Shown: positions 2,024 through 26,589, numbered from the stretch's first letter. The stretch is DNA of 64,000 nucleotides from an uncultured archaeon (GCA_937921685.1 CAKZUF010000007.1:55384-119383), one strand, 5' to 3'. Translations and numbers: made by a program. Notes: a model not told the origin generated them from the sequence alone.

Positions 2024-2941
2024 TTGAAACACTTTCTCCAGGTTTTTGACGCCTCTAGGAGCGAGCTCTTAAGCATCATCGAGCTCGCCCTGAGGTTTAG
2101 ACGGGATGGCTATACCGGCTATCCTTTGCGTGGCAAGGTCATCGCCCTGCTCTTCGAAAAACCCTCCACGCGGACTAGGGTCTCGTTCAGCTCCGCCGTT
2201 TTAAGGCTTGGAGGCGAGGTAATCTACCTCCCCGCATCTGAGCTCCAGCTAGCGCGCGGTGAGCCATTAAAAGATACTGCTCGAGTTCTCAACAGATACG
2301 TAGACGCAATAGTTGCGCGGCTCGCATCCCACTCCTCGTTAGAGGAGATCGCAAAATACTCTGAGAAGCCTGTAATAAACGCGCTCACAAACCTCCACCA
2401 CCCGTGCCAGGCCCTTGCGGATGTGGCTACGATGTATGAGGATGCAGGGGGCTGGGGGTTTAAGGTTTCATATATTGGAGACTGCGGAAATGTCTGCAGA
2501 TCCCTAGTACAGATATGTGCTTTACTGGGTATCCCAATCTCCGTAGCGTCTCCTCGAAAATATTGGCTCCCACCAGACGAGATCCAAATGTACAAGGAGG
2601 TGGCCTCTTCGGTAGGGGGTACAGTGGAATTCACCGAGGATCCCGAGGCAGCGGTGACGGATTCCGACTTCATCTACACAGATGTCTTCGTCTCTATGGG
2701 AATGGAGCGCGAGTATGAGACAAGGCTTCGAGACTTCCTCCCCCGCTTCCGCGTAAGCATGAGGCTATTTGAGAAGGCGAAGCCGGGCACCAAGTTCATG
2801 CACTGTATGCCTATTAGGAGGGGGGAGGAAGTGGAAGAGGAGGTTGTCGAGTCGGCCCGCTCGATAATCTTCCTACAGGCTGAGTACAGGATGCATAGCT
2901 CGGCCGCTCTGCTAGTTTCCCTACTGGGGGGAACTAGCTAG
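2024..2941 (+). CDS. argF: ornithine carbamoyltransferase (less likely another transcarbamylase)
   Basis: FEKPSTRTRVSFS carbamoyl-phosphate-binding motif and the HCMP motif (HCLP in OTC versus HPLP in ATCase). TTG start. Confidence 0.75.
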   Translation: MKHFLQVFDASRSELLSIIELALRFRRDGYTGYPLRGKVIALLFEKPSTRTRVSFSSAVLRLGGEVIYLPASELQLARGEPLKDTARVLNRYVDAIVARLASHSSLEEIAKYSEKPVINALTNLHHPCQALADVATMYEDAGGWGFKVSYIGDCGNVCRSLVQICALLGIPISVASPRKYWLPPDEIQMYKEVASSVGGTVEFTEDPEAAVTDSDFIYTDVFVSMGMEREYETRLRDFLPRFRVSMRLFEKAKPGTKFMHCMPIRRGEEVEEEVVESARSIIFLQAEYRMHSSAALLVSLLGGTS

Positions 2942-3455
2942 CGGTGTGGGACTCCTGAATCTTCGCTTCCAGCTGCTCGACTACGATGCCGTAGGATTTG
3001 GGCAGCTTAGAGGCGGCTACTTTCATTGCCTGTTTTGCTAGCTCGATATCTTTTCCATAGACATATAGTTCGAGAACATCCTCACCTGCATCTACCTGAG
3101 CAGCCCTGCCCACAGGCCGGCCGAAAGCCCTGCTCATCCCTTCTTGTAGCCTATCTGCATGGGCCCCAAAAATCATTTTGTTCTCTCTTAGTACGTGGTG
3201 CGGGTGGGCTTTTACTGTAAGGTAGAAGTTCATGCCTATTTTCTGGGAGAGCATCTTGCCCGCCGCGACCCTGGCCGACTCGAGCGCCACGTCTCTTATC
3301 TGGACAGGCTCCCTAGCAACCAGTCTTAACCTGTATTCGTAGTTGTCTTGCCATGTCCCGTAGTCGTATTTAGCTAGCCTTGCTTGGGGGGCGCCGTGGA
3401 TATAGTCAACCCTAGTAAATGGCCTCTCCATCGACCGGTAATTCTTTGCCTTCAT
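2934..3455 (-). CDS. rpl10e: 50S ribosomal protein L10e (uL16)
   Basis: MKAKNYRSMERPFTRVDYIHGAPQARL... is a typical archaeal L10e N-terminus. Confidence 0.85.
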   Translation of the reverse strand: MKAKNYRSMERPFTRVDYIHGAPQARLAKYDYGTWQDNYEYRLRLVAREPVQIRDVALESARVAAGKMLSQKIGMNFYLTVKAHPHHVLRENKMIFGAHADRLQEGMSRAFGRPVGRAAQVDAGEDVLELYVYGKDIELAKQAMKVAASKLPKSYGIVVEQLEAKIQESHTAS

Positions 3456-3514
3456 TTCTACGTATTTGTACGGAGGGCACGCTAAAAACCTATTTTCGAG
3501 GGAGTTGTCACGAT

Positions 3515-4264
3515 ATGATTGACGTGGGGGAAGTGGGTAACCAGGAGAGGATAGTAAGTGCTGAGGATATTGAGGCTGTGAAGGTTAGGATTGCGGGGGA
3601 GATTGCGATATCTAAGTCGCCTGGAGTGGCCATGAAGAAGTGGAGGCAGCTTTTTGGCGAGAAGCAGCGTGAGGTTGCGGCGCGTATGGGCGTCTCCCCC
3701 TCAGTCCTCAGCGACTATGAGCAGGGTAAGAGGTCTCCCGGTATCAAGTTTGTGGGCCGGTATGTTGAGAGTTTGATAGCTTTAGACCTTGAGAAGGGTG
3801 GGGCCAATATTAGGCACTTTTCAGACCCCTCCCGCTCGCGCCACAAAGCCATCTTAGATTTGCGTGAATTCTCCACTCCGGTCACGCTTGACAGGATAGT
3901 TGACGCTATGGAGGGTGAGTATCTGTGGAGGAGTAGGGGGCGTGAGCCTGAGGTCTATGGGTACACAGTTGTTGACAGCATAGCCGCGATACGTTACATG
4001 GACTCAACAGAGTTCATCCAAATCTTTGGCTTGACCTCTATGAGGGTGCTAGTCTTCACAAATGTCACCACAGGTAGATCACCACTGGTGGCTGTCAGGG
4101 TCTATCCCCTAAAACCCATCGCAGTCGCATTGCACGGCCCACCCTCCCCTGAACAGGTTGATAAACTGGCCGTCGAGCTTGCAGAACTCTCTAGAGTCCC
4201 ACTAATACTGAGCAGGTCCAGGTCGGTGAAAGACATGATCGACGCTTTGAGGAGGCTGGGGTGA
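3515..4264 (+). CDS. XRE-family HTH transcriptional regulator with a conserved archaeal C-terminal domain
   Basis: HTH_3-like segment WRQLFGEKQREVAARMGVSPSVLSDYEQGKRSP. An internal ATG at 3515 avoids the overlap with rpl10e. Confidence 0.5.
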   Translation: MIDVGEVGNQERIVSAEDIEAVKVRIAGEIAISKSPGVAMKKWRQLFGEKQREVAARMGVSPSVLSDYEQGKRSPGIKFVGRYVESLIALDLEKGGANIRHFSDPSRSRHKAILDLREFSTPVTLDRIVDAMEGEYLWRSRGREPEVYGYTVVDSIAAIRYMDSTEFIQIFGLTSMRVLVFTNVTTGRSPLVAVRVYPLKPIAVALHGPPSPEQVDKLAVELAELSRVPLILSRSRSVKDMIDALRRLG

Positions 4265-17426: not shown

Positions 17427-20060
17427 ATGATATATACGGCGATGCACCGTGGCCTAGGCAGTCAGATGGGATACTGGGGCGCCGGCACTCTGATAGTCCT
17501 TCTTCTATACACCATAATATGGGCAGGGCTGTCCTTCCCCAACATTGAGACCTACCGAATCCAGTACGACGGGGTTGGCGACAGCGCACTGCAAGGATTC
17601 GAGTTATCTATTGAGGAGAGCATCGAGATTATTGGGGGTTGGAGCAAGTCTACCCTAACAGTCCTCATTGTACCAAGCGTAGACGAACGTCTAACGAGTT
17701 GGGCCGGCAGGGCTGTCGACTGGTGGAGGAGAGCTAAAGAGACCTTCACGGCACTTTACGGCTACGAATATTTAAACAGGCTCGAGTTTGTGAAGCTTGT
17801 CCGAGGCATAAACGGCACGTCGGGTGACATCGTCGTAGAATATGTGGAAAGCCTAGGAGAGCGGATATGCGGGCAAACCTATATCATCGCACAAAATGGA
17901 GAGATTAGATACGCATCAGTTCAACTATCGCTAGAATGTATCAGAGGCCGGGAAGAGTATGCACTGGTAGTTGCAATGCATGAGCTTGGCCATGCGCTGG
18001 GGATAGGGCATACTACCAACTCTAGAGACTTGATGTATGCATACCTGGTCCCTGGCTCCAGGCCCTCCACGCTAAATCTCTACGCCTTAGCAGTGATCTA
18101 CGCATGGCTTGATCGGGGAATTTTCAAAAGCCCCCCAAACACGGTGACCCTGCCGTCGGGCATGGATTATATCCAGATTCTGGACGTGAACGGAGAGCCC
18201 GTCAAATTCAGGATAAGAATTTACCTGCTACTTAGAGATAAAGAACTCCTCTACAGGACAATATTCGTACCTGCCGGCCAGAGCTTCACCATAAACGTCA
18301 ACACGATGATCCAAGACGCGGACGACGCCTGGGCGAGGTACGTCTTCACCGGTTGGAGGATTAGAGGGTCAGATCAAACACTATATACAAGCACTTCTAT
18401 AACTCTCAAGCCAACCGGTCACGCAGACTATATCGCCGTCTATGATGTAGAATACAGGCTTGTCGTTGAATATCCCAACGGAACCATTCTCGACGACTGG
18501 ATAAGAAGGGGTAGTAGGGTATCAGTTAACGCAACAGAATTGATCTATCTATCTGTTGATGAGAGGCTGGTCTTTGTCGGGTGGAGTGGCGCGATAAACA
18601 GCACCAGCATTAGGCTTGAGCTTATCGTGGAGTCGCCTATTTACCTGTACGCGGTTTATAGAAGGGAATTCCTGGTCGAGGTTGCATCCGACTTTGGAGA
18701 GCCCTCAGTCTCAGGCTGGTGGCCGGAGGGAACGCTCCTCAACATAACCATCAACCCCAGCATCGTATACCTCTCCGAAGATGCTAGAATTGTGCTCAAT
18801 GGATTCAACGGCTCCCATTCAGCTTCAACACCTTACCTGTTGATCAACCTGACAGAGCCCGTACACCTCTCTGCGGTCTGGAAAGCGCAGTATCTTGTGA
18901 CGATCAGGAGCCTGGGAGGGGAGCTACACGAACACATATGGGCTGACAACGCGTCCAGAATAACAGTCACCGTGCCCAGAGAGATCCTCTGGGATAATAG
19001 GTCAAAGGCTGTCTTCACGCGATGGCTAAACCCAGATCTGTCCTCAGAGCCCACGCAGAGTCTGACAGTTACCGGTCCTAGATTCTTAGCCCCGTTGTAT
19101 GAGAGGTATTATTTCGTAGAAGTTGTTTCCACTGTGAAGGTCGACGCGCCGACTAACTGGTATAGGCGTGGGGAGGTCTTTGAGCTAGTGGTCCCCAGCT
19201 CGGTTGAGCTGGATGAAGGGTTGAGGGCCGTATTACTCGGAACCTCCGAAGGGGCTGAGGATACACTAAGGTTTGTAGTCCAGTTGCCAAAGACCATAAT
19301 ACTGTATTGGAGAGAGGAGGCGCGGATAACGATTAAGAATCCGACGATAGGGGTGGATAAAATAATCTGGGCCCCAATAAACCAAGTCATCTATCTGGAC
19401 ACACCTTCCATAATACATGTTAGCTCGGGGGAGGCGTATGAGTTCGTCAAATGGGCCGGCGGGGTCGAGTCCAGAGAAAGGACAATTTCGATCACGGTTA
19501 ATGGAAGCATCGAGCTCAGACCCGAGTATAGGAGAGTATATCGCGTCGCGTTTAACACCATACCTTCACTCAATGTCGAGTTATTGCTTCAAGAGACGTC
19601 GGGCAGGCTCTACAGGGTGCGGAGTGGTGAGTCGGCCTGGCTGCCGGAGGGGCGCTTAGTAATTCTGGGGGTGTACTGGGAGGGGCTCGAGGTTAAGAAT
19701 GCTTCCAAAGTATATGTAAACGGATCGGGCGCCTACCAAGTTAAACTAGCCGTGAGAAGCTTAGACGTTGAGGTCCTAGACATGCTCGGATTACCCGCAC
19801 CCTTCTACGAAGTCCAAGCCCTCCGCTCGGATGCCGTTATAGAATCCCGCGCCATTTCAGATTCTGCTGGACTGGCTAGGCTAAGTGCCGTCAGCTCATC
19901 GATAAGCGAGGTAGGGGCTAGATGGATGGTTTTTGAGACCTTCGCGAAGCCGGAGCCGCAGAGAGTACAGGTCAGGGTTCCAGTAAGCTTCTATACCCTT
20001 CTCCTAGCATCCACAATATTGATCGCCACATCTGCGATACAGGCTTATAGGCGGTTCTAG
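17427..20060 (+). CDS. membrane-anchored matrixin-like (metzincin) zinc metalloprotease with repeated beta-rich domains
   Basis: N-terminal TM/signal-like segment. [11 protein letters not shown](x7)LMY is an HExxHxxGxxH zinc site plus Met-turn. At least five repeats with an F-x-GW...Y-x-x-x-Y-R pattern. C-terminal TM helix ([17 protein letters not shown]) followed by a short basic tail. Confidence 0.6.
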
Positions 20061-20588: not shown

Positions 20589-20709
20589 TCCCGGCGGCAG
20601 GATTTGAACCTGCGGCCCTCCGGTTTCTGTTAGCCCGGTAGGCTGGCAAAGGCGCGGCTGGATGCCGGCCTCTACAGCCGGATGCTCTACCAGGCTGAGC
20701 TACGCCGGG
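20589..20709 (-). tRNA. tRNA-Tyr (anticodon GTA) with an intron of about 47 nt after position 37
   Basis: Hand-folded on the minus strand. Acceptor CCCGGCG/CGCCGGG gives the C1:G72 archaeal tRNA-Tyr identity pair. D arm GCTC/GAGC. Anticodon stem TCCGG/CCGGA with loop CTGTAG^A. T arm GCAGG-TTCAAAT-CCTGC. Discriminator A. CCA is not encoded. Confidence 0.75.
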
Positions 20710-21422: not shown

Positions 21423-21496
21423 GCCCCGGTAGCTCAGCCAGGTAGAGCGGCCGCCTTGTAAGCGGCAGGTCGCGGGTTCAAACCCCGCCCGGGGCT
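21423..21496 (+). tRNA. tRNA-Thr (anticodon TGT), no intron
   Basis: GCCCCGG-TA-GCTC-AGCCAGGTA-GAGC-G-GCCGC-CTTGTAA-GCGGC-AGGTC-GCGGG-TTCAAAC-CCCGC-CCGGGGC-T folds as a canonical cloverleaf. Confidence 0.8.
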
Positions 21497-21597
21497 TATT
21501 TCCACGAGTTTTCCCCCGAAGCCATACTGCTGGACCGCTCTGTCTTCCACGGTACTGTTTAAATCCTCTCGAATGTGCTTGATAGTATGAGGGCTCG

Positions 21598-22563
21598 ATG
21601 CCAATACTTGTTACTGGTGCGTGTGGCTTCATCGGTGCGTGGACTGTGAGGCGGCTGTTAGAGCTGGGCGAGAAGGTGGTTCTGACCGATGTTTCAGGCG
21701 ACTTAACCAGGCTTAGATATGTTGTTGACGGGGCTGACAGGCTTCCATTCGTTAGGGGCGATATTGTTGAGGAGGGCTTCATAGAGAACATAGTTAAGAG
21801 CTACGGTATTGACGCTATAATCCATCTAGCCGCCTTTCAGATCCCCCAATGTAGGGCAGATCCTGTGAGGGGGGCGCTCGTGAACGTGATAGGCACTTTA
21901 AGGGTCTTCGAGGCGGCTAAAAAGAATCGCGACACTGTTAGACGTGTCGTCTATGCGAGCTCGGCCGCCGTTTTCGGGCCCCCGGAGCTTTACGGTAAAG
22001 GCCCAGTACCGGTTAACGCACCTCTAAAACCTACAACCCATTATGGCGCCTACAAGGTATGCAACGAGCTGACAGCAAACGCCTATTGGCATGAATCTGG
22101 CATTCCAAGTGTCGGTCTTAGACCACAGGTAGTCTACGGTTATGGGCGTGATGTCGGTGTGACTTCTGACGCCTCCCGAGCTATAAAGGCAGCTATAGCC
22201 CGTAGGCCCTACAGGATAAGGTTTGGCGGTTTGATAGATATGCAGTATGTGGAGGATGTGGCGCACCTGTTTGCCGTCTCTGCAATTAAGGACCTAGATG
22301 GGGCCCGAGTTTATAACGTCCGGGGAGACGTGATAAGCGTCGCACAGCTTGTGAAGCTTATAGAGGAGGCCACGGGCGTAAGCGGGCTCATAACGTTTGA
22401 GGATAAACCCCTACCCATTCCCGCCTACTTGGACGACTCTGAGACAGAGAGGGATCTAGGCCCCCTCAAGAAGACTCCTGCACGGGAAGGAGTAGCGAAG
22501 ACTGCGGAGTTTTTCCTCGGGCTCCTGAAGCGCGGCGAGCTGGATCTCAGCGACCTTACCTGA
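21598..22563 (+). CDS. NAD-dependent epimerase/dehydratase (extended SDR family)
   Basis: VTGACGFIGAW Rossmann motif and the YGAYK catalytic YxxxK. Confidence 0.75.
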   Translation: MPILVTGACGFIGAWTVRRLLELGEKVVLTDVSGDLTRLRYVVDGADRLPFVRGDIVEEGFIENIVKSYGIDAIIHLAAFQIPQCRADPVRGALVNVIGTLRVFEAAKKNRDTVRRVVYASSAAVFGPPELYGKGPVPVNAPLKPTTHYGAYKVCNELTANAYWHESGIPSVGLRPQVVYGYGRDVGVTSDASRAIKAAIARRPYRIRFGGLIDMQYVEDVAHLFAVSAIKDLDGARVYNVRGDVISVAQLVKLIEEATGVSGLITFEDKPLPIPAYLDDSETERDLGPLKKTPAREGVAKTAEFFLGLLKRGELDLSDLT

Positions 22564-22600
22564 TTGAAGCGAGATTTTTATCATAATATTTGGACAATAT

Positions 22601-23809
22601 GTGGTGATGAGCCAGTACTGGTCTGAAGATCCTGTATTAATGATTCCAGGGCCATCTGAGCTGCATCCACGGGTTAGGCAGGTCTTGACAGGTAGGTTCT
22701 ACCCGCATTACGGCTCCGAGTGGGGTGAGATATACTGGGAAGTCGAGGAGGCTGTTAGGAAGATCTTCAGGACAAGAAACGAGGTTATAGTGATGCCTGG
22801 GCCCGGATGTCTCGGCCTGGAGCTGGGGGTTGTCAACGTGGCTAACCGTGGAGATAAGGTAGTCGCCCTGACCAATGGATTCTTCGGTGATAGGTTTGCA
22901 GAGATAGCCAGCTACTGTGCAGCGGAGGTTGTGACGCTCAGCTCTCCCCCCGGATACATCGTCTCCACAGAGGCGCTCAAAGAGTGTCTGGACAAAAACC
23001 CCGACGCGGTCGCGCTGATAGTCGTGCAGAACGAGTCGGCCACCGGTGTACTGAACCCAATCCCCCAGTATGTTGAGATAGCGAAGAAGCGCGGGCTATT
23101 TACCGTTGTCGACTCTATCTCGGCTTTTGGGGGAGCCGAGCTTGATGTTGATGGCTGGGGTATAGATGTCTGTGTCGGGTATCCTAACAAGTGTTTGAGC
23201 GGGATTCCTGGAGCTCTGCCAGTCTCGATAAGCGGTGAGGTGTGGGAGAGGGTGGAGCGGGGACTTGTGCATCCTGCCAGCTGGATGACGAACCTGCGGG
23301 TCTGGAGGTGGTATAGGAGGAACTGGGCCAGCCATGGCCACCCATACCCTACGACGATCAACACGTATGCCTATTTGGCCTTGAAGGTGGCGGCGGAGGT
23401 GGCGATAGAGGAGGGTTTGGAGAAAAGGTACGAGCGGCACCGTAGGATGGCCGCGGCCTTCAGGGCTGCGGCCAAGGCCATGGGGCTGGGACTGGTAAGC
23501 AGAAACGAGGAATACGCCTCTCCTACAATAACCGCGATAGAGCTACCTCCCGAACTCCGGGGAAAGATTGAGCACATAGTTGGAAAGATGCTCCGCGACT
23601 ATAGAATCATGATTAGCAGGGGGATAGCTGCGACCGAAGAGACAGCGATAAGGATTGGACATATGGGCTACACGGCCAGCCCCCGATTCCTCATCCCAAC
23701 ACTTGCCGCACTATCAGAAACTCTAAGCTCACAAGGATATCAGAGATGCTCAACGGGAGATGCTATAGACGCCTTTTACAAGGCCTTGGGGAAAACGCGG
23801 AGTGGGTAA
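22601..23809 (+). CDS. class V (AGXT-type) PLP-dependent aminotransferase
   Basis: Class-V fold pattern with a PLP-lysine region YPNKCLSG. Typical serine-pyruvate / alanine-glyoxylate aminotransferase layout. Confidence 0.7.
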   Translation: MVMSQYWSEDPVLMIPGPSELHPRVRQVLTGRFYPHYGSEWGEIYWEVEEAVRKIFRTRNEVIVMPGPGCLGLELGVVNVANRGDKVVALTNGFFGDRFAEIASYCAAEVVTLSSPPGYIVSTEALKECLDKNPDAVALIVVQNESATGVLNPIPQYVEIAKKRGLFTVVDSISAFGGAELDVDGWGIDVCVGYPNKCLSGIPGALPVSISGEVWERVERGLVHPASWMTNLRVWRWYRRNWASHGHPYPTTINTYAYLALKVAAEVAIEEGLEKRYERHRRMAAAFRAAAKAMGLGLVSRNEEYASPTITAIELPPELRGKIEHIVGKMLRDYRIMISRGIAATEETAIRIGHMGYTASPRFLIPTLAALSETLSSQGYQRCSTGDAIDAFYKALGKTRSG

Positions 23810-24983
23810 AAAATATAGCCACCACGCCCCTCAATGTTTTGTGGCCACCCTTTTCGGTGAGCGGCTCAACAGGGACAGACTTGAGAGGTATGTTGGCGAT
23901 GTATCACAGGTAGGTGGGCTAACTCTTTTCAAGTTAATAGATGGGCCGGAGGGCGGTGTCAGATGCATCAATCTCAGGACTGGACTGTTAAACGCGACCA
24001 TAGTGGTCGACCGAGCACTCGACATCGCTAACCTAGAGTACAAGGGAATACCACTGGCATGGATAAGCCCGACCGGCATACAGTCACCCGCATTCTACGA
24101 ACCTGAGGGCCTAAACTGGCTGAGAGGGTTTTTCGGAGGGGCTCTCACAACTTGTGGTCTAACATACTTCGGCAGACCTACTGTTGATGAGGGAGAACAA
24201 CTGGGGCTACATGGACGGGTATCATATATTCCAGCGAGGCTGAAGGTCTGTAGGGGCAGGTGGGAAGGAGACGACTACATTCTTGAGATTGAAGGGGAGG
24301 TAAGAGAGGTAAAGGTCTTTGAACCCAACATCTCCCTCCACCGAAGAATAGAGGCACGACTCGGAGAGAGCCGGATCCTGATAAGGGATACAGTCGTCAA
24401 CAATGGATGGTATTCACAGCCCTTCATGATACTATACCACTTCAACTTCGGATACCCCCTCCTAAGCAGGGACTCGAGACTAGTATCAACCTCGCGCCTC
24501 GTCGTCCCTAGAGATGCCGACGCCGCTGAAGGAGCGGAATACTTTGACAGCTTCGAAGACCCCCAACAAGGATATAGGGAGAGAGTCTACTTCCACGACT
24601 TGGCCACCGACCCTGACGGATACGCATACGCAGCCCTCGTAAATAAGAGGCTCTACAACGGCTTGGCCGCAGTCCTCCGATTCAGAAAGTCGAGCCTAAA
24701 CCGACTAATAGAGTGGAAGATGATGGGTGAGGGGACATATGTGCTAGGAATCGAGCCGGCGAACGCTCTCGTATTAGGGAGAGACGTAGAGAGGCGTTTC
24801 GGAACACTCCAGTTCCTCGCGCCGCGCGAGAGTAGAGTAATCGAGATTGAGCTGAGCGTGTTGGAGGGGGTTGAAGCGATAAGTGCTCTTGAGGAGAAGA
24901 TATTATCTATACGTGGCCGTGAAAGGCCTAGGATTCTGCGGACTGTTGAGGAATTCATTACTCTGACGAGTGGAACTATCTGA
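23802..24983 (+). CDS. aldose 1-epimerase-like (DUF4432-type) protein
   Basis: Mutarotase-like beta-sandwich signatures (LGLHGR, LYHFNFGYP). Its start overlaps the aminotransferase stop. Assignment is by memory only. Confidence 0.4.
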   Translation: MGKKYSHHAPQCFVATLFGERLNRDRLERYVGDVSQVGGLTLFKLIDGPEGGVRCINLRTGLLNATIVVDRALDIANLEYKGIPLAWISPTGIQSPAFYEPEGLNWLRGFFGGALTTCGLTYFGRPTVDEGEQLGLHGRVSYIPARLKVCRGRWEGDDYILEIEGEVREVKVFEPNISLHRRIEARLGESRILIRDTVVNNGWYSQPFMILYHFNFGYPLLSRDSRLVSTSRLVVPRDADAAEGAEYFDSFEDPQQGYRERVYFHDLATDPDGYAYAALVNKRLYNGLAAVLRFRKSSLNRLIEWKMMGEGTYVLGIEPANALVLGRDVERRFGTLQFLAPRESRVIEIELSVLEGVEAISALEEKILSIRGRERPRILRTVEEFITLTSGTI

Positions 24984-25308
24984 AGAGCTGGACATGTTTA
25001 ATTCCGCCGACCTCGATGCAGGCTGACTCGCAAACCAGCCCGTCAGATATAGCCTTTGCAACCACGTCATTCCCCAACAAATTTATGATTGTCGCCCCCT
25101 CTATGGCTCTTTTAACCCCCTCCCAATCAACCATCCTACCCATGTAAAAATCGGGGCTGACAGATACCTCGTATCCATCACGAACCTTTAACCTCAATCC
25201 TAACAGCTCGGAGTCACAAACAGCGACAACTACCTCGCCCGTCAACGACCTATGCATCTTCATCCAGTAAGACATCAGAGTCTCCGAATGATACATCCAT
25301 GCACCCAA
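24976..25308 (-). CDS. small hypothetical protein (110 aa)
   Basis: Overlaps the DUF4432 stop. No confident family; a swivel-type small domain is possible. Confidence 0.3.
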   Translation of the reverse strand: MGAWMYHSETLMSYWMKMHRSLTGEVVVAVCDSELLGLRLKVRDGYEVSVSPDFYMGRMVDWEGVKRAIEGATIINLLGNDVVAKAISDGLVCESACIEVGGIKHVQLFR

Positions 25309-25348: not shown

Positions 25349-26029
25349 TTAAAGGAGGACCGGAACCCCGCTTATAGGTAGTGCTAAGAGTGTTATGAAC
25401 GAGACGAGGGGAACAGTGATGTTATCGTCAACCCATCTGAATTCGAGTTTCTCTATGATCGAGGCGGCAGCTCCTGCCACAGCGCCCGAAACCCCTAGCG
25501 AAAGGAAGCCTGCGGGGATGCAGAAGAGGGCCATTGCTAAGTTCCCCCACCACGACTTTGTTCGCCGTTGATAGATCATATTTCTCACGATCCCAGTGAT
25601 ACCGTCGCCGATGCTCATGAAGAGGATGGGCAACACGCCGATAGTTAAGTTGCCTAAGAAAAATCCTAAGCCCATCATCAAACCCCACATCAATATGAAG
25701 TGGACCTCATACATGTTTTCCTTAACCTGGTACCAATACCATATCTTTCCACTCCGGTGAGGAAGGTAGTTTCCGACCGCAAGGACTGCGACTAGTATAG
25801 CGATTAATATGAAACTCTTAAACAGGAACGGAACAAGGACGGAGACCAGCCCCCCAGCCAAGATGTGGATTATCTTCCTATTGTAGTAAACGACTACATT
25901 GTGCTCATACCCTCTCCTTAAGAGTGTATTGTAAATCTTCTTGCAGACATAGTGGCTTACAAACAGCACCCAAGCAAATAAGGCGGTCACGTAGATAAAC
26001 TCCGCCGGAGCGGGTGGTGCAAGCAGCAT
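25349..26029 (-). CDS. polytopic membrane protein, possibly a polyprenol/dolichol kinase-like CTP-dependent enzyme
   Basis: Six or seven TM helices, with SIGDGITGIVRN resembling the GDxxAxxxG motif of dolichol/phytol kinases. Speculative. Confidence 0.3.
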   Translation of the reverse strand: MLLAPPAPAEFIYVTALFAWVLFVSHYVCKKIYNTLLRRGYEHNVVVYYNRKIIHILAGGLVSVLVPFLFKSFILIAILVAVLAVGNYLPHRSGKIWYWYQVKENMYEVHFILMWGLMMGLGFFLGNLTIGVLPILFMSIGDGITGIVRNMIYQRRTKSWWGNLAMALFCIPAGFLSLGVSGAVAGAAASIIEKLEFRWVDDNITVPLVSFITLLALPISGVPVLL

Positions 26030-26255
26030 TATCCGAGTACTGGAAATTGTGTAAAATAAGGTTTATGGTCTAAGAAGTGGCGCGGGGGGAGGGTGAAGTA
26101 ATCGAGGGAGAGGTCTAGATTCTCCTCAGCTCACCAACCGATATCCCAGACCAATAATGGCCACTAGCAAGCAGAATAAACTCGCAAAAAGGACTGGAAG
26201 TAGTGGGAGACGCCAAACGAGCCGCTTCGTAGACCTGAGCCTATAATCCCGACTC

Positions 26256-26456
26256 CTATGATAAGTGGTTTGAGGCCAACGACAAGGGAGAAGAGCTGCG
26301 ATAGCCATCCTTCTTCCGCGGCATGATCGAGGCGGCTACACAATACAGTGCGATCGTCGGGATGGGGGCCAAAAAGACGAAAACAATGCCCACCAGCCTC
26401 ATAATTTGGGGGTCGACTATAAAGTATTCGCCCAGTCCGCCGAAAACCCCAGCCAA
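26256..26456 (-). CDS. PspC-domain small membrane protein
   Basis: MAGVFGGLGEYFIVDPQIMRLVGIVFVFL matches the PspC domain consensus (GVCAGLAEYFGIDPTLVRL...). Confidence 0.45.
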   Translation of the reverse strand: MAGVFGGLGEYFIVDPQIMRLVGIVFVFLAPIPTIALYCVAASIMPRKKDGYRSSSPLSLASNHLS

Positions 26457-26589
26457 GACTCTGTCCCTAGTCGACCGTTATAAGTCTTTAGACGTACCTA
26501 GACTCGCGACGGTCGAATGTCTTCTGCGTTGTTAAAGTTTCGGAGAGGGGGGCGGTTTATCCATCTTTAAATCGCAGGCTGCGCATATA

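Follow-up and report, generated by a model that had tools for sequence, protein, structure and literature searches.

The window analysed here, a 64-kb stretch of DNA, belongs to the genome of a hot-spring archaeon of the Ca. Calditenuaceae (Aigarchaeota) and hosts a trio of genes for an extended SDR, an aminotransferase and a DUF4432 protein. ORF calling returned three longest ORFs running in the same direction (21598-22563, 22601-23809 and 23802-24983). The upstream boundary of the locus is a tRNA-Thr gene with the anticodon TGT on the plus strand (21423..21496), detected by ARAGORN and Rfam (RF00005, 70.4 bits); in the orthologous locus L170, the 3' end of the same tRNA lies directly 5' of the SDR gene. 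Downstream, the locus is bounded by a convergent DUF424 gene on the minus strand (24976..25308; PF04242, 70 bits), the 3' end of which overlaps the DUF4432 stop by 8 bp. This gene is a conserved synteny anchor, as it occupies the same position in L170, L081, L085 and L173 irrespective of what fills the third slot, the place held here by the DUF4432 gene. The layout described in the first-pass annotation, three co-directional ORFs between tRNA-Thr and a convergent gene, was thus confirmed.

That annotation had also described tight packing, with a 37-bp gap followed by an 8-bp overlap. The spacers are indeed short and all genes lie on the same strand, but both figures changed after correction of the start codons. 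The longest ORF of the aminotransferase begins at GTG 22601. Because a database protein that is 100% identical to it (P0241) has 400 aa, translation most likely starts at ATG 22607, and therefore the first spacer is 43 bp long rather than 37. For the DUF4432 protein, all 12 aligned homologs start at the residue matching the in-frame GTG 23841, most database orthologs have 377-380 aa compared with 393 aa for the longest ORF, and the AlphaFold model shows disorder over the first 13 residues (1-13) of the long form. The 8-bp overlap is probably a spurious result of choosing the longest ORF, and a start at GTG 23841 leaves a spacer of 31 bp. In orthologous loci this spacer measures 41, 88 and 93 bp, so the two genes are not translationally coupled.

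The first gene (21598..22563, plus strand) encodes a protein of 321 aa that belongs to the NAD-dependent epimerase/dehydratase family (PF01370; 6.9e-35, 121 bits compared with a cut-off of 20.9). The motifs TGACGFIG and YGAYK, pointed out in the first-pass annotation, are present, in keeping with an NAD-type Rossmann fold and an S-Y-K triad. S121/S122, Y149 and K153 are invariant among 15 homologs and aligned with S124/Y149/K153 of GalE; D31, an acidic residue after strand 2, is likewise invariant among homologs. None of the NCBIfam equivalog cut-offs was attained. The GalE model (TIGR01179) covered residues 3-175 only and scored 96.9 bits compared with a cut-off of 262.3. Also rejected were dTDP-glucose 4,6-dehydratase (TIGR01181; 74.5 compared with 365.1), CDP-type 4,6-dehydratase (45 compared with 278), LegB (85.8 compared with 475), PseB (26.5 compared with 408) and D-erythronate dehydrogenase DenD (NF043036; 76.9 bits compared with 325, N-terminal Rossmann half only). 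When the SDR was aligned with E. coli GalE, N179 of GalE fell on R175, the N199/L200 segment had no counterpart, R231 fell on I, V or T, and the positions of R292 and D295 lay within a 5-residue deletion. These residues are the UDP-binding ones of GalE. The same pattern at the UDP-binding positions was obtained with 7YS8.

SDR orthologs with 52-59% identity are found, in independent lineages, in two kinds of sugar-acid oxidation cluster. One comprises an MR_MLE gene (gluconate/galactonate-dehydratase-like), the SDR gene and an MFS gene; the other has the order DHDPS-type aldolase, PfkB (KDG kinase, 390 bits), SDR, 2,5-dioxovalerate dehydrogenase and FAH. Taken together with its sequence, the SDR is probably a dehydrogenase whose sugar or sugar-acid substrate carries no nucleotide. 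Having lost the nucleotide-binding residues of GalE, this NAD-dependent extended SDR would most likely oxidise a free sugar, a uronate or a sugar acid in an oxidative route of the Entner-Doudoroff/Weimberg type. Free-sugar dehydrogenases have been described among the epimerase-like SDRs, namely the L-arabinose dehydrogenase of Haloferax volcanii, HvG6PDH and the uronate dehydrogenase of Agrobacterium (PMC8506132), and Caldarchaeales carry genes of the branched or non-phosphorylative Entner-Doudoroff pathway (PMC10547907). Like the described enzymes, the window SDR combines a PF01370-type fold with an NAD-type Rossmann motif and S-Y-K, and has no nucleotide-sugar site. The likeness is one of fold and motif, however, as the Azf model reached only 29.9 bits, and the window SDR adjoins no sugar-acid enzyme.

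The first-pass annotation had raised the option of a clear L-threonine 3-dehydrogenase (TDH) ortholog. In that case, the locus would belong to threonine/glycine metabolism, and the AGXT enzyme would act on glycine and glyoxylate. SDR-type TDH structures were indeed detectable with the SDR family profile (75-94 bits; 3a1n 94, 5z75 91), in 15 loci of soil bacteria a threonine-aldolase-like gene is located about 2 kb away from the SDR ortholog, and the locus adjoins tRNA-Thr, probably by coincidence. However, GalE-like (124 bits) and dehydratase-like (118 bits) structures outscored every TDH, so the SDR is no clear TDH ortholog. The closest SDR orthologs lie within the sugar-acid clusters described above, the soil-bacterial synteny probably represents a single lineage, and a 2-amino-3-ketobutyrate CoA ligase gene was adjacent in none of the loci examined. 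We regard a role as TDH as highly improbable.

The second gene (22607..23809, plus strand; 400 aa) encodes a PLP-dependent enzyme of the Aminotran_5 family (PF00266; 3.2e-18, 66.3 bits compared with a cut-off of 21.5). Its best relatives in the PDB are 2dr1, 2z9u and other AGXT/SPT enzymes (E about 1e-45 to 1e-38), and full-length similarity extends to Pyrococcus PH1308 (2DR1), the Sulfolobus SPT (3ZRP) and pyridoxamine-pyruvate aminotransferase (2Z9U), with E between 1e-45 and 1e-27. Asp169, Lys195 and Arg349 are invariant among 14 homologs; by analogy with human AGT, they are presumably the cofactor Asp, the PLP-binding Lys and the C-terminal Arg, respectively. Unlike the characterized serine-pyruvate/alanine-glyoxylate aminotransferases, the window protein stays under all NCBIfam equivalog cut-offs. 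The best score was that for pyridoxamine-pyruvate transaminase (NF046070; 221 bits compared with 600); PhnW (116-129 compared with cut-offs of 296-401) and BhcA (151 compared with 650) were rejected as well. The DegT/DnrJ/EryC1 profile (PF01041) matched residues 42-177, the N-terminal third, with 19.8 bits, exactly its cut-off, in agreement with the earlier view that the enzyme is of the AGXT/class V rather than the DegT type. Judged by its sequence, the protein is an ordinary AGXT-family enzyme that keeps the PLP lysine of the family and the invariant arginine. It would interconvert small alpha-amino and 2-oxo acids, such as Ser, Ala or Gly with pyruvate, glyoxylate or hydroxypyruvate. A near-identical protein is already named serine-pyruvate aminotransferase in public records.

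The third gene (23841..24983, plus strand; 380 aa from the corrected GTG) encodes a member of the DUF4432 family (PF14486; 1.7e-100, 336 bits compared with a cut-off of 32.5, profile positions 3-304 of 304). With this, all three family assignments made earlier from the raw sequence (Epimerase, Aminotran_5 and DUF4432) proved correct in Pfam. The AlphaFold model of the DUF4432 protein (pLDDT 82, pTM 0.84) resembles the DUF4432 structure of KPN_04629 (3TY1) with 24% identity and a TM of 0.75 (2.7e-29 by sequence, 9.5e-25 by Foldseek). Genuine GalM enzymes were retrieved at 2e-14 to 4e-9, and the Foldseek probability was 1.00 for 3TY1 as well as for B. subtilis, L. lactis and human GalM. According to the model, the protein has the galactose-mutarotase-like beta-sandwich fold common to these GalM enzymes, as anticipated by the previously noted resemblance to an aldose-1-epimerase. 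Unlike GalM, it has no match to Aldose_epim (PF01263) in Pfam, and its profile shows no similarity to that of E. coli GalM (hhalign probability 0.1). The invariant residues H137, H213 and E318 lie in the motifs LHGR, YHFNFG and IEPAN, which resemble in sequence LHGG (H104), NHVYFNL (H175) and LESE (E309) of GalM. In the literature searched, no function has been published for any DUF4432 member. The neighbours of bacterial orthologs are FGGY kinase (12 loci), GFO/IDH/MocA (10), class II aldolase (7) and fucose-isomerase-like genes (6), in addition to PfkB and glycosidase-like genes. The window protein would have a carbohydrate as its substrate and would probably interconvert its anomers or catalyse a related sugar isomerisation.

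An oxidoreductase followed by a PLP aminotransferase had suggested a carbohydrate amination pathway. Acting on a sugar, a nucleotide sugar or inositol, the SDR would oxidise one ring hydroxyl to a keto group, and the aminotransferase would then convert the product to an amino sugar or aminocyclitol with the DUF4432 protein as helper. There is general precedent for this logic in NDP-sugar 4,6-dehydratases or oxidoreductases combined with DegT/DnrJ/EryC1 enzymes and in inosose aminotransferases. Moreover, the window trio is co-directional and tightly spaced, and a sister lineage has a divergently oriented IPCT/DIPPS-like inositol-phosphate gene upstream. Unlike in the known modules, the aminotransferase is AGXT-type, the SDR has no GalE-like UDP-binding residues and scores under the cut-off of every NDP-sugar enzyme, and neither a glycosyltransferase nor a nucleotidyltransferase was found near the trio in the window. 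The inositol-phosphate gene is missing from the window lineage, and the arrangement is limited to one family. Amination of a keto-sugar is thus a most unlikely function of the locus, although the carbohydrate connection itself was supported for the first and third genes.

TATA-like boxes were read from the sequence 32-40 nt 5' of all three genes. The box of the SDR gene, TTTAAAT (21558..21564, plus strand), is a putative promoter element 40 nt 5' of the start codon, and GAGGG is found 4-8 nt 5' of the ATG. It is identical in L001, whereas L093/L170 have ATATTTAT and L081/L085/L173 have TATAAATA instead, at a similar distance. A second box, TTTTTATCATAA (22575..22586, plus strand), begins 32 nt 5' of ATG 22607 and is a candidate internal promoter for a leaderless aminotransferase mRNA; it is kept in L001 and corresponds to GATTTATCAC in L093/L170 and GGTTTATTAC in L081/L085/L173. 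The third box, AAAAATATAG (23809..23818, plus strand), begins 32 nt 5' of GTG 23841 and is a candidate promoter for a leaderless DUF4432 mRNA; it is identical in L001 and reads AGTTATATC in L093/L170 at the same distance. The boxes are conserved across orthologous loci, whereas the spacers around them diverge. In the window, such boxes were detected upstream of 15 of the 68 genes, compared with 2.9% at random positions. Probably, each gene of the trio has a TATA-box promoter of its own and an mRNA with no leader or a short one, and the three genes would be transcribed independently. No terminator was identified, and with co-directional genes and spacers of 43 and 31 bp, co-transcription by read-through is possible.

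The neighbourhood was followed in orthologs of each gene. Among 80 species-level DUF4432 loci (41-79% identity), SDR and aminotransferase homologs were found beside DUF4432 in one, L001, which is from the same family; the cluster is absent from the other 79, two of which have distant, weak SDR/aminotransferase matches only. In the SDR set (86 loci, 62 of them with at least 1.3 kb downstream), the aminotransferase adjoins the SDR in only five, all from Aigarchaeota (L081, L082, L085, L086 and L093), and DUF4432 does so in L093 only. Aminotransferase orthologs with 45-52% identity from other Aigarchaeota, Caldarchaeum and Thaumarchaeota are stand-alone genes that follow L16/RNase H or have unrelated neighbours, and the SDR was not found beside them. 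In the sister lineage (55-60% identity), the SDR-aminotransferase pair and the downstream DUF424/eIF-1A/SufBD genes are kept, and Peptidase_M19 and RraA-like genes replace DUF4432. The trio-bearing loci also keep unrelated flanks (Peptidase_M10-like, S12, MarC, tRNA-Thr, DUF424, eIF-1A, SufBD and SMC); therefore, adjacency of the trio is no better conserved than background synteny. Genes of an operon are expected to share a strand with short spacers, as these do, and to keep their order beyond background synteny and across distant lineages, which these do not. The first-pass annotation had proposed neighbourhood conservation as a check on its dedicated oxidise-then-transaminate operon. Viewed from all three genes, the homologs are conserved separately, and this result, the replaced third slot, the stand-alone aminotransferase orthologs and the promoter-like box of each gene argue against that operon.

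The trio is embedded in a block of housekeeping genes whose synteny is conserved in Ca. Calditenuaceae. Considering the observed family memberships, fold, conservation pattern and promoter-like boxes, we believe, with slightly more belief than doubt, that three metabolic genes with separate functions lie side by side in a single family and do not form the operon of a dedicated three-step pathway.

A real functional link could nevertheless exist between the first two genes, since the pair persists in two Aigarchaeota sub-lineages that differ in the upstream and third-slot genes. The SDR would oxidise a 2-hydroxy acid (D-glycerate, a tetronate or an aldonate) to the 2-oxo acid, and the aminotransferase would convert this to the alpha-amino acid (serine from hydroxypyruvate, for instance); the reactions could also run in the opposite direction, and variable accessory genes would fill the third slot. 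The two genes are adjacent, with spacers of 36-53 bp, in every Aigarchaeota locus with this SDR (the window, L001, L093, L170, L081/82, L085/86 and L173). Hydroxypyruvate, glyoxylate and pyruvate are used by AGXT-family enzymes, going by the names of the PDB relatives, and DenD, the weak N-terminal match of the SDR, is an extended SDR for a 2-hydroxy acid. Bacterial SDR orthologs occur near TIM-barrel genes that resemble isomerases of hydroxypyruvate or 2-oxo-tetronate, and near D-2-hydroxyacid-dehydrogenase-like genes. On the other hand, the DenD score is far under its cut-off, the pair is confined to a narrow Aigarchaeota group (5 of the 62 SDR loci with sufficient downstream sequence), the unrelated flanking genes are equally kept where the pair is kept, the aminotransferase has its own conserved box, and its orthologs occur elsewhere without this SDR. 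We regard a two-enzyme unit as unlikely.

Both third-slot alternatives can be read as carbohydrate-related, either as a mutarotase fold or as an amidohydrolase-fold M19 protein with an RraA-type 4-hydroxy-2-oxoacid aldolase, which would fit a variable sugar-oxidation module around the SDR. In a three-gene version for sugars or amino sugars, DUF4432 would equilibrate anomers, the SDR would oxidise C1 to a lactone or acid, and the aminotransferase would deaminate a 2-amino-aldonate or aminate C2/C3 cleavage products; in the sister lineage, this route would make use of the M19 protein, as a lactonase- or deacylase-like amidohydrolase, and of the aldolase. The sugar-acid clusters of SDR orthologs and the fold and sugar-catabolic neighbours of DUF4432 are consistent with this, as is L174, where an SDR ortholog is accompanied by another PLP enzyme (D-ser_dehydrat family), a KDG-type aldolase and a kinase. 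The M19 protein matches Amidohydro_2 weakly, but its match to the dipeptidase family is strong (269 bits), and a lactonase precedent was not found. The 64-kb window contains no second aminotransferase and no further sugar-pathway gene; sugar-acid dehydratase, lactonase, transporter and kinase are all absent. DUF4432 and this SDR are neighbours in one family only, and each gene has a promoter-like box, making the three-gene version a rather doubtful one. Cooperation of the SDR and DUF4432 within the favoured juxtaposition is possible but unproven, for example with the mutarotase delivering the anomer that a sugar 1-dehydrogenase requires.

A more specific form would be an undescribed oxidative amino-sugar route, which we consider a long shot. 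DUF4432 would bring the anomers of a 2-amino-2-deoxy aldose to equilibrium, and the SDR would oxidise C1 to a 2-amino-aldonate, chemically an alpha-amino acid. The aminotransferase would remove the amino group, leaving a 2-keto-aldonate that enters an Entner-Doudoroff-type pathway, and the M19 amidohydrolase and RraA-type aldolase of the sister lineage would act in the same route. If true, this would give DUF4432 its first function and AGXT enzymes a new substrate class.

In the window, a tRNA-Thr(TGT) gene (21423-21496) is followed by genes for an SDR (21598-22563, +; Pfam Epimerase PF01370, 6.9e-35), a class V aminotransferase (AT; open reading frame 22601-23809, +; Aminotran_5 PF00266, 3.2e-18) and a DUF4432 protein (longest open reading frame 23802-24983, +; DUF4432 PF14486, 1.7e-100), with a convergent DUF424 gene (24976-25308) beyond them. 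The first-pass annotation had assigned all three families correctly and rightly described three co-directional genes, but the 8-bp overlap it reported between the last two is probably an artefact of taking the longest reading frame. All 12 aligned DUF4432 homologs begin at the residue matching an in-frame GTG at 23841, orthologs are mostly 377-380 aa long, and the AlphaFold model shows disorder in the 13 residues that only the long form has. The AT most likely starts at ATG 22607, where a 100% identical database protein of 400 aa begins (its record is a 2.4-kb contig with no further gene context). Correcting the starts to 22607 and 23841 leaves spacers of 43 and 31 bp; at orthologous loci, the AT-DUF4432 spacer is 41, 88 and 93 bp. 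Public records of Ca. Calditenuaceae archaeon HR02 contain near-identical proteins, annotated as UDP-glucose 4-epimerase, serine-pyruvate aminotransferase and hypothetical protein, respectively. With a GC content of 0.52-0.59, the three genes do not differ conspicuously from those around them, so composition gives no hint of recent transfer.

At the orthologous loci, an A/T-rich TATA-like box starts 32-40 nt upstream of the start codon of each gene, and these boxes are conserved while the remaining spacer diverges. The SDR box reads TTTAAAT in the window and in locus L001 of a Calditenuaceae MAG, ATATTTAT in two other Aigarchaeota loci bearing all three genes (L093 and L170), and TATAAATA in three loci of a sister lineage (L081, L085 and L173). 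The corresponding AT boxes are TTTTTATCATAA, GATTTATCAC and GGTTTATTAC; those of DUF4432 are AAAAATATAG (window and L001) and AGTTATATC (L093 and L170), the gene being absent from L081, L085 and L173. As the host is archaeal, promoters were surveyed with a simple TATA-hexamer search rather than a sigma-70 scanner, and a hexamer was found at -38 to -24 in 15 of 68 window genes compared with 2.9% of random positions. The box geometry looks like the usual promoter signature of this genome, with leaderless or short-leader mRNAs. Each of the three genes probably has a promoter of its own, and read-through transcription may also occur.

Taken as the operon first proposed, the three genes would have pointed to a new pathway of amination and would have placed DUF4432 in a functional context for the first time. 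Their homologs are conserved separately. A scan with a DUF4432 alignment as query, using one genome per species, yielded 80 loci (41-79% identity) from Bathyarchaeia, Thermoproteota, Brockarchaeota, Nitrososphaeria and many bacterial phyla; phmmer with the window's SDR and AT found both genes adjoining DUF4432 only in L001. SDR homologs of at least 70% identity are exclusive to Aigarchaeota/Nitrososphaerota, and those at 50-60% include many Armatimonadota/Fervidibacteria, other bacteria and Nitrososphaerota. An AT homolog lies within 5 kb of the SDR ortholog in only five of 86 loci (L081, L082, L085, L086 and L093, all Aigarchaeota), and a DUF4432 homolog is nearby in L093 only. AT homologs of at least 65% identity are on the same contigs as SDR and DUF4432 genes. 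L170 keeps, along with the three genes, unrelated flanks (ribosomal proteins, an M10-motif protein, S12, MarC, tRNA-Thr, DUF424, eIF-1A, SufBD and SMC), so that the trio is conserved no better than one family's background synteny. This is the outcome that the first-pass annotation had named as refuting its proposal, and the three-gene operon is not supported. Confined to one lineage and no more stable than the housekeeping synteny around it, the adjacency is unsuitable for guilt-by-association annotation. A three-gene module for sugar or amino-sugar oxidation is distinctly improbable. With moderate confidence, we favour a Calditenuaceae-specific juxtaposition, in which the SDR would be a sugar or sugar-acid dehydrogenase mis-annotated as UDP-glucose 4-epimerase, the AT a general AGXT-type aminotransferase, and the DUF4432 protein a mutarotase-fold carbohydrate enzyme.

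In the sister lineage (L081/82, L085/86 and L173; AT identity 55-58%), the gene order is IPCT/DIPPS-like (-), SDR, AT, Peptidase_M19, RraA-like, DUF424 (-), eIF-1A and SufBD. Both the SDR-AT pair and the housekeeping genes downstream persist here, and the third slot holds Peptidase_M19 (269 bits) and the RraA-like gene (117 bits) instead of DUF4432. The retained pair could point to a genuine SDR-AT couple acting on hydroxy and oxo acids; at 45-52% identity, in another Aigarchaeota MAG, Caldarchaeum and Thaumarchaeota, the AT stands alone, none of the three loci has an SDR beside it, and we consider such a couple unlikely. In two of these three loci the AT is preceded by an L21e-Rpb4-DUF655-L16-RNase H block. 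Unlike in Thaumarchaeota and the other Aigarchaeota MAG, neither RNase H nor AT follows the window's ribosomal protein L16/L10e gene (2937-3584, -), a pattern consistent with, though no proof of, a move of the AT to the SDR position in this lineage. The gene divergently upstream of the sister-lineage SDR (L081 5995-7875, L085 4959-6836, L173 292-2187; all -) encodes an NTP_transferase and CDP-OH_P_transf fusion of about 625 aa. IPCT/DIPPS, the enzyme that produces di-myo-inositol phosphate, has this architecture; in the window lineage the position is empty of such a gene.

The SDR carries a GxxGxxG motif, an invariant S-Y-K triad and an invariant Asp31 after strand 2, a position where Asp is typical of NAD preference. 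It reached no NCBIfam equivalog cut-off (GalE 97 of 262 bits, dTDP-glucose dehydratase 75 of 365, DenD 77 of 325). The best solved relatives of the family profile were GalE-like 7YS8 (124 bits), for which no literature was found, and a dehydratase-like protein (118 bits). Threonine dehydrogenases of the SDR type scored only 75-94 bits, below both, and a threonine dehydrogenase reading is very unlikely. Compared with E. coli GalE, at the positions that we take to bind UDP, N179 is replaced by Arg and R231 by Ile/Val/Thr, the N199/L200 segment is missing, and R292/D295 fall inside a 5-residue deletion. Without these positions, a nucleotide-sugar substrate is unlikely. Taken with the AGXT type of the AT and the background synteny, this loss also leaves the keto-sugar amination suggested at first unsupported, and we give that model hardly any credence. 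Oxidation of free sugars or sugar phosphates is known for epimerase-like SDRs, among them Haloferax L-arabinose dehydrogenase and G6PDH, as well as uronate dehydrogenase (PMC8506132). Kinship to the 'atypical L-threonate 3-dehydrogenase' (PMC12994016) was rejected, that enzyme being a classical and not an extended SDR.

The closest SDR orthologs outside Aigarchaeota are found among sugar-acid genes. Armatimonadota loci (56-58%) contain MOSC, MR_MLE, SDR and an MFS transporter, with a hydroxypyruvate or 2-oxo-tetronate isomerase-like TIM barrel on the opposite strand; the MR_MLE protein is most similar to gluconate/galactonate dehydratase (213 bits). L175 (54%) comprises Lactamase_B, adh_short, AP_endonuc_2, MR_MLE and SDR. 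L090/L091 (52-53%) and L174 of a Nitrososphaerota archaeon (59%) combine an HpcH aldolase, a DHDPS-family aldolase, a KDG/KDGal kinase (390 bits, cut-off 400) and SDR, which overlaps the kinase gene by 4 bp in L174 and is followed in L091 by 2,5-dioxovalerate dehydrogenase (625 bits) and a FAH-family protein. This is the gene set of branched Entner-Doudoroff/Weimberg-type oxidative sugar pathways; a sugar or sugar-acid dehydrogenase and a dehydratase are the steps unfilled in these clusters. Routinely annotated as UDP-glucose 4-epimerase, the subfamily lacks the UDP-binding residues and occurs in sugar-acid oxidation clusters of several phyla, and is therefore a good candidate for a sugar or sugar-acid dehydrogenase missing from the oxidative pathways of archaea and bacteria. 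The L174 cluster also contains a PLP enzyme of the Ala_racemase_N and D-ser_dehydrat type (602-1684, +), a hint that clusters of this kind may also process amino-substituted sugar acids or hydroxy-amino acids. In soil bacteria, judged by eye, a GNAT-like acetyltransferase gene directly follows the SDR ortholog, with overlapping or abutting stops, at 11 loci (L094, L100, L101, L106, L111, L114, L123, L124, L126, L141 and L156); the database protein P0236 fuses the two in 506 aa. At 27 loci, the SDR ortholog has a D-2-hydroxyacid-dehydrogenase-like gene divergently upstream.

The AT is a typical AGXT-family enzyme with invariant Asp169, Lys195 and Arg349 and no real DegT-type signal in Pfam. Its best relatives (E 1e-45 to 1e-38) are Pyrococcus PH1308, M. 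loti pyridoxamine-pyruvate aminotransferase and alanine-glyoxylate/serine-pyruvate aminotransferases. Pyridoxamine-pyruvate transaminase was the best NCBIfam name; a role in vitamin B6 salvage or degradation (transaminase, hemiacetal dehydrogenase and lactonase) was unsupported, as the model scored no better than generic AGXT relatives.

Profile-profile comparison detected no similarity between DUF4432 and E. coli GalM, and the fold was therefore tested by structure prediction. The AlphaFold model (pLDDT 82, pTM 0.84) has the galactose-mutarotase fold and matches both 3TY1 (9.5e-25) and genuine GalM enzymes (2e-14 to 4e-9). The invariant motifs LHGR, YHFNFG and IEPAN appear similar to the catalytic His/His/Glu motifs of GalM. 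Literature searches returned only incidental mentions of DUF4432 and, for 3TY1, unrelated trypanosome and Plasmodium gene identifiers. Genes that recur beside DUF4432 in bacteria encode FGGY kinase (12 loci), GFO/IDH/MocA oxidoreductase (10, mostly directly downstream), class II fructose-bisphosphate-type aldolase (7) and fucose-isomerase-like proteins (6); PfkB kinase, xylose-isomerase-like TIM barrels and glycosidase-like proteins also recur. The mutarotase fold of the DUF4432 family and its consistent bacterial links with genes for FGGY kinase, GFO/IDH/MocA and class II aldolase leave fewer places to look for its function. The locus holds nothing categorically new; its value lies in annotation correction and this smaller search space.

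The 64 kb contain no homologs of MR_MLE, DHDPS, PfkB, ALDH, FAH, HpcH, M19, RraA, FGGY, GFO or class II aldolase, and no second SDR or AT of these subfamilies. Caldarchaeales are reported to have branched or non-phosphorylative Entner-Doudoroff genes and to use sugars and peptides (PMC10547907), which agrees with the individual assignments and gives no link among the three genes.

Other features lie nearby. Ahead of eIF-1A, a gap (26030-26589) of about 560 bp has no ORF of at least 80 aa and no Rfam match, and the adjacent 226-aa multi-pass membrane protein (25349-26029, -) matched neither Pfam nor NCBIfam. Upstream, the sole Pfam signal of an 877-aa protein (17427-20060, +) with a hydrophobic segment at its end is a 31-residue match to the Peptidase_M10 (matrixin) zinc site; L170 has an 883-aa protein at the same position. 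Rfam detected a 121-nt tRNA (20589-20709, -; 57.5 bits), missed by ARAGORN in bacterial/linear mode. About 50 nt are inserted in its anticodon-loop region, and it is presumably an archaeal tRNA that contains an intron.
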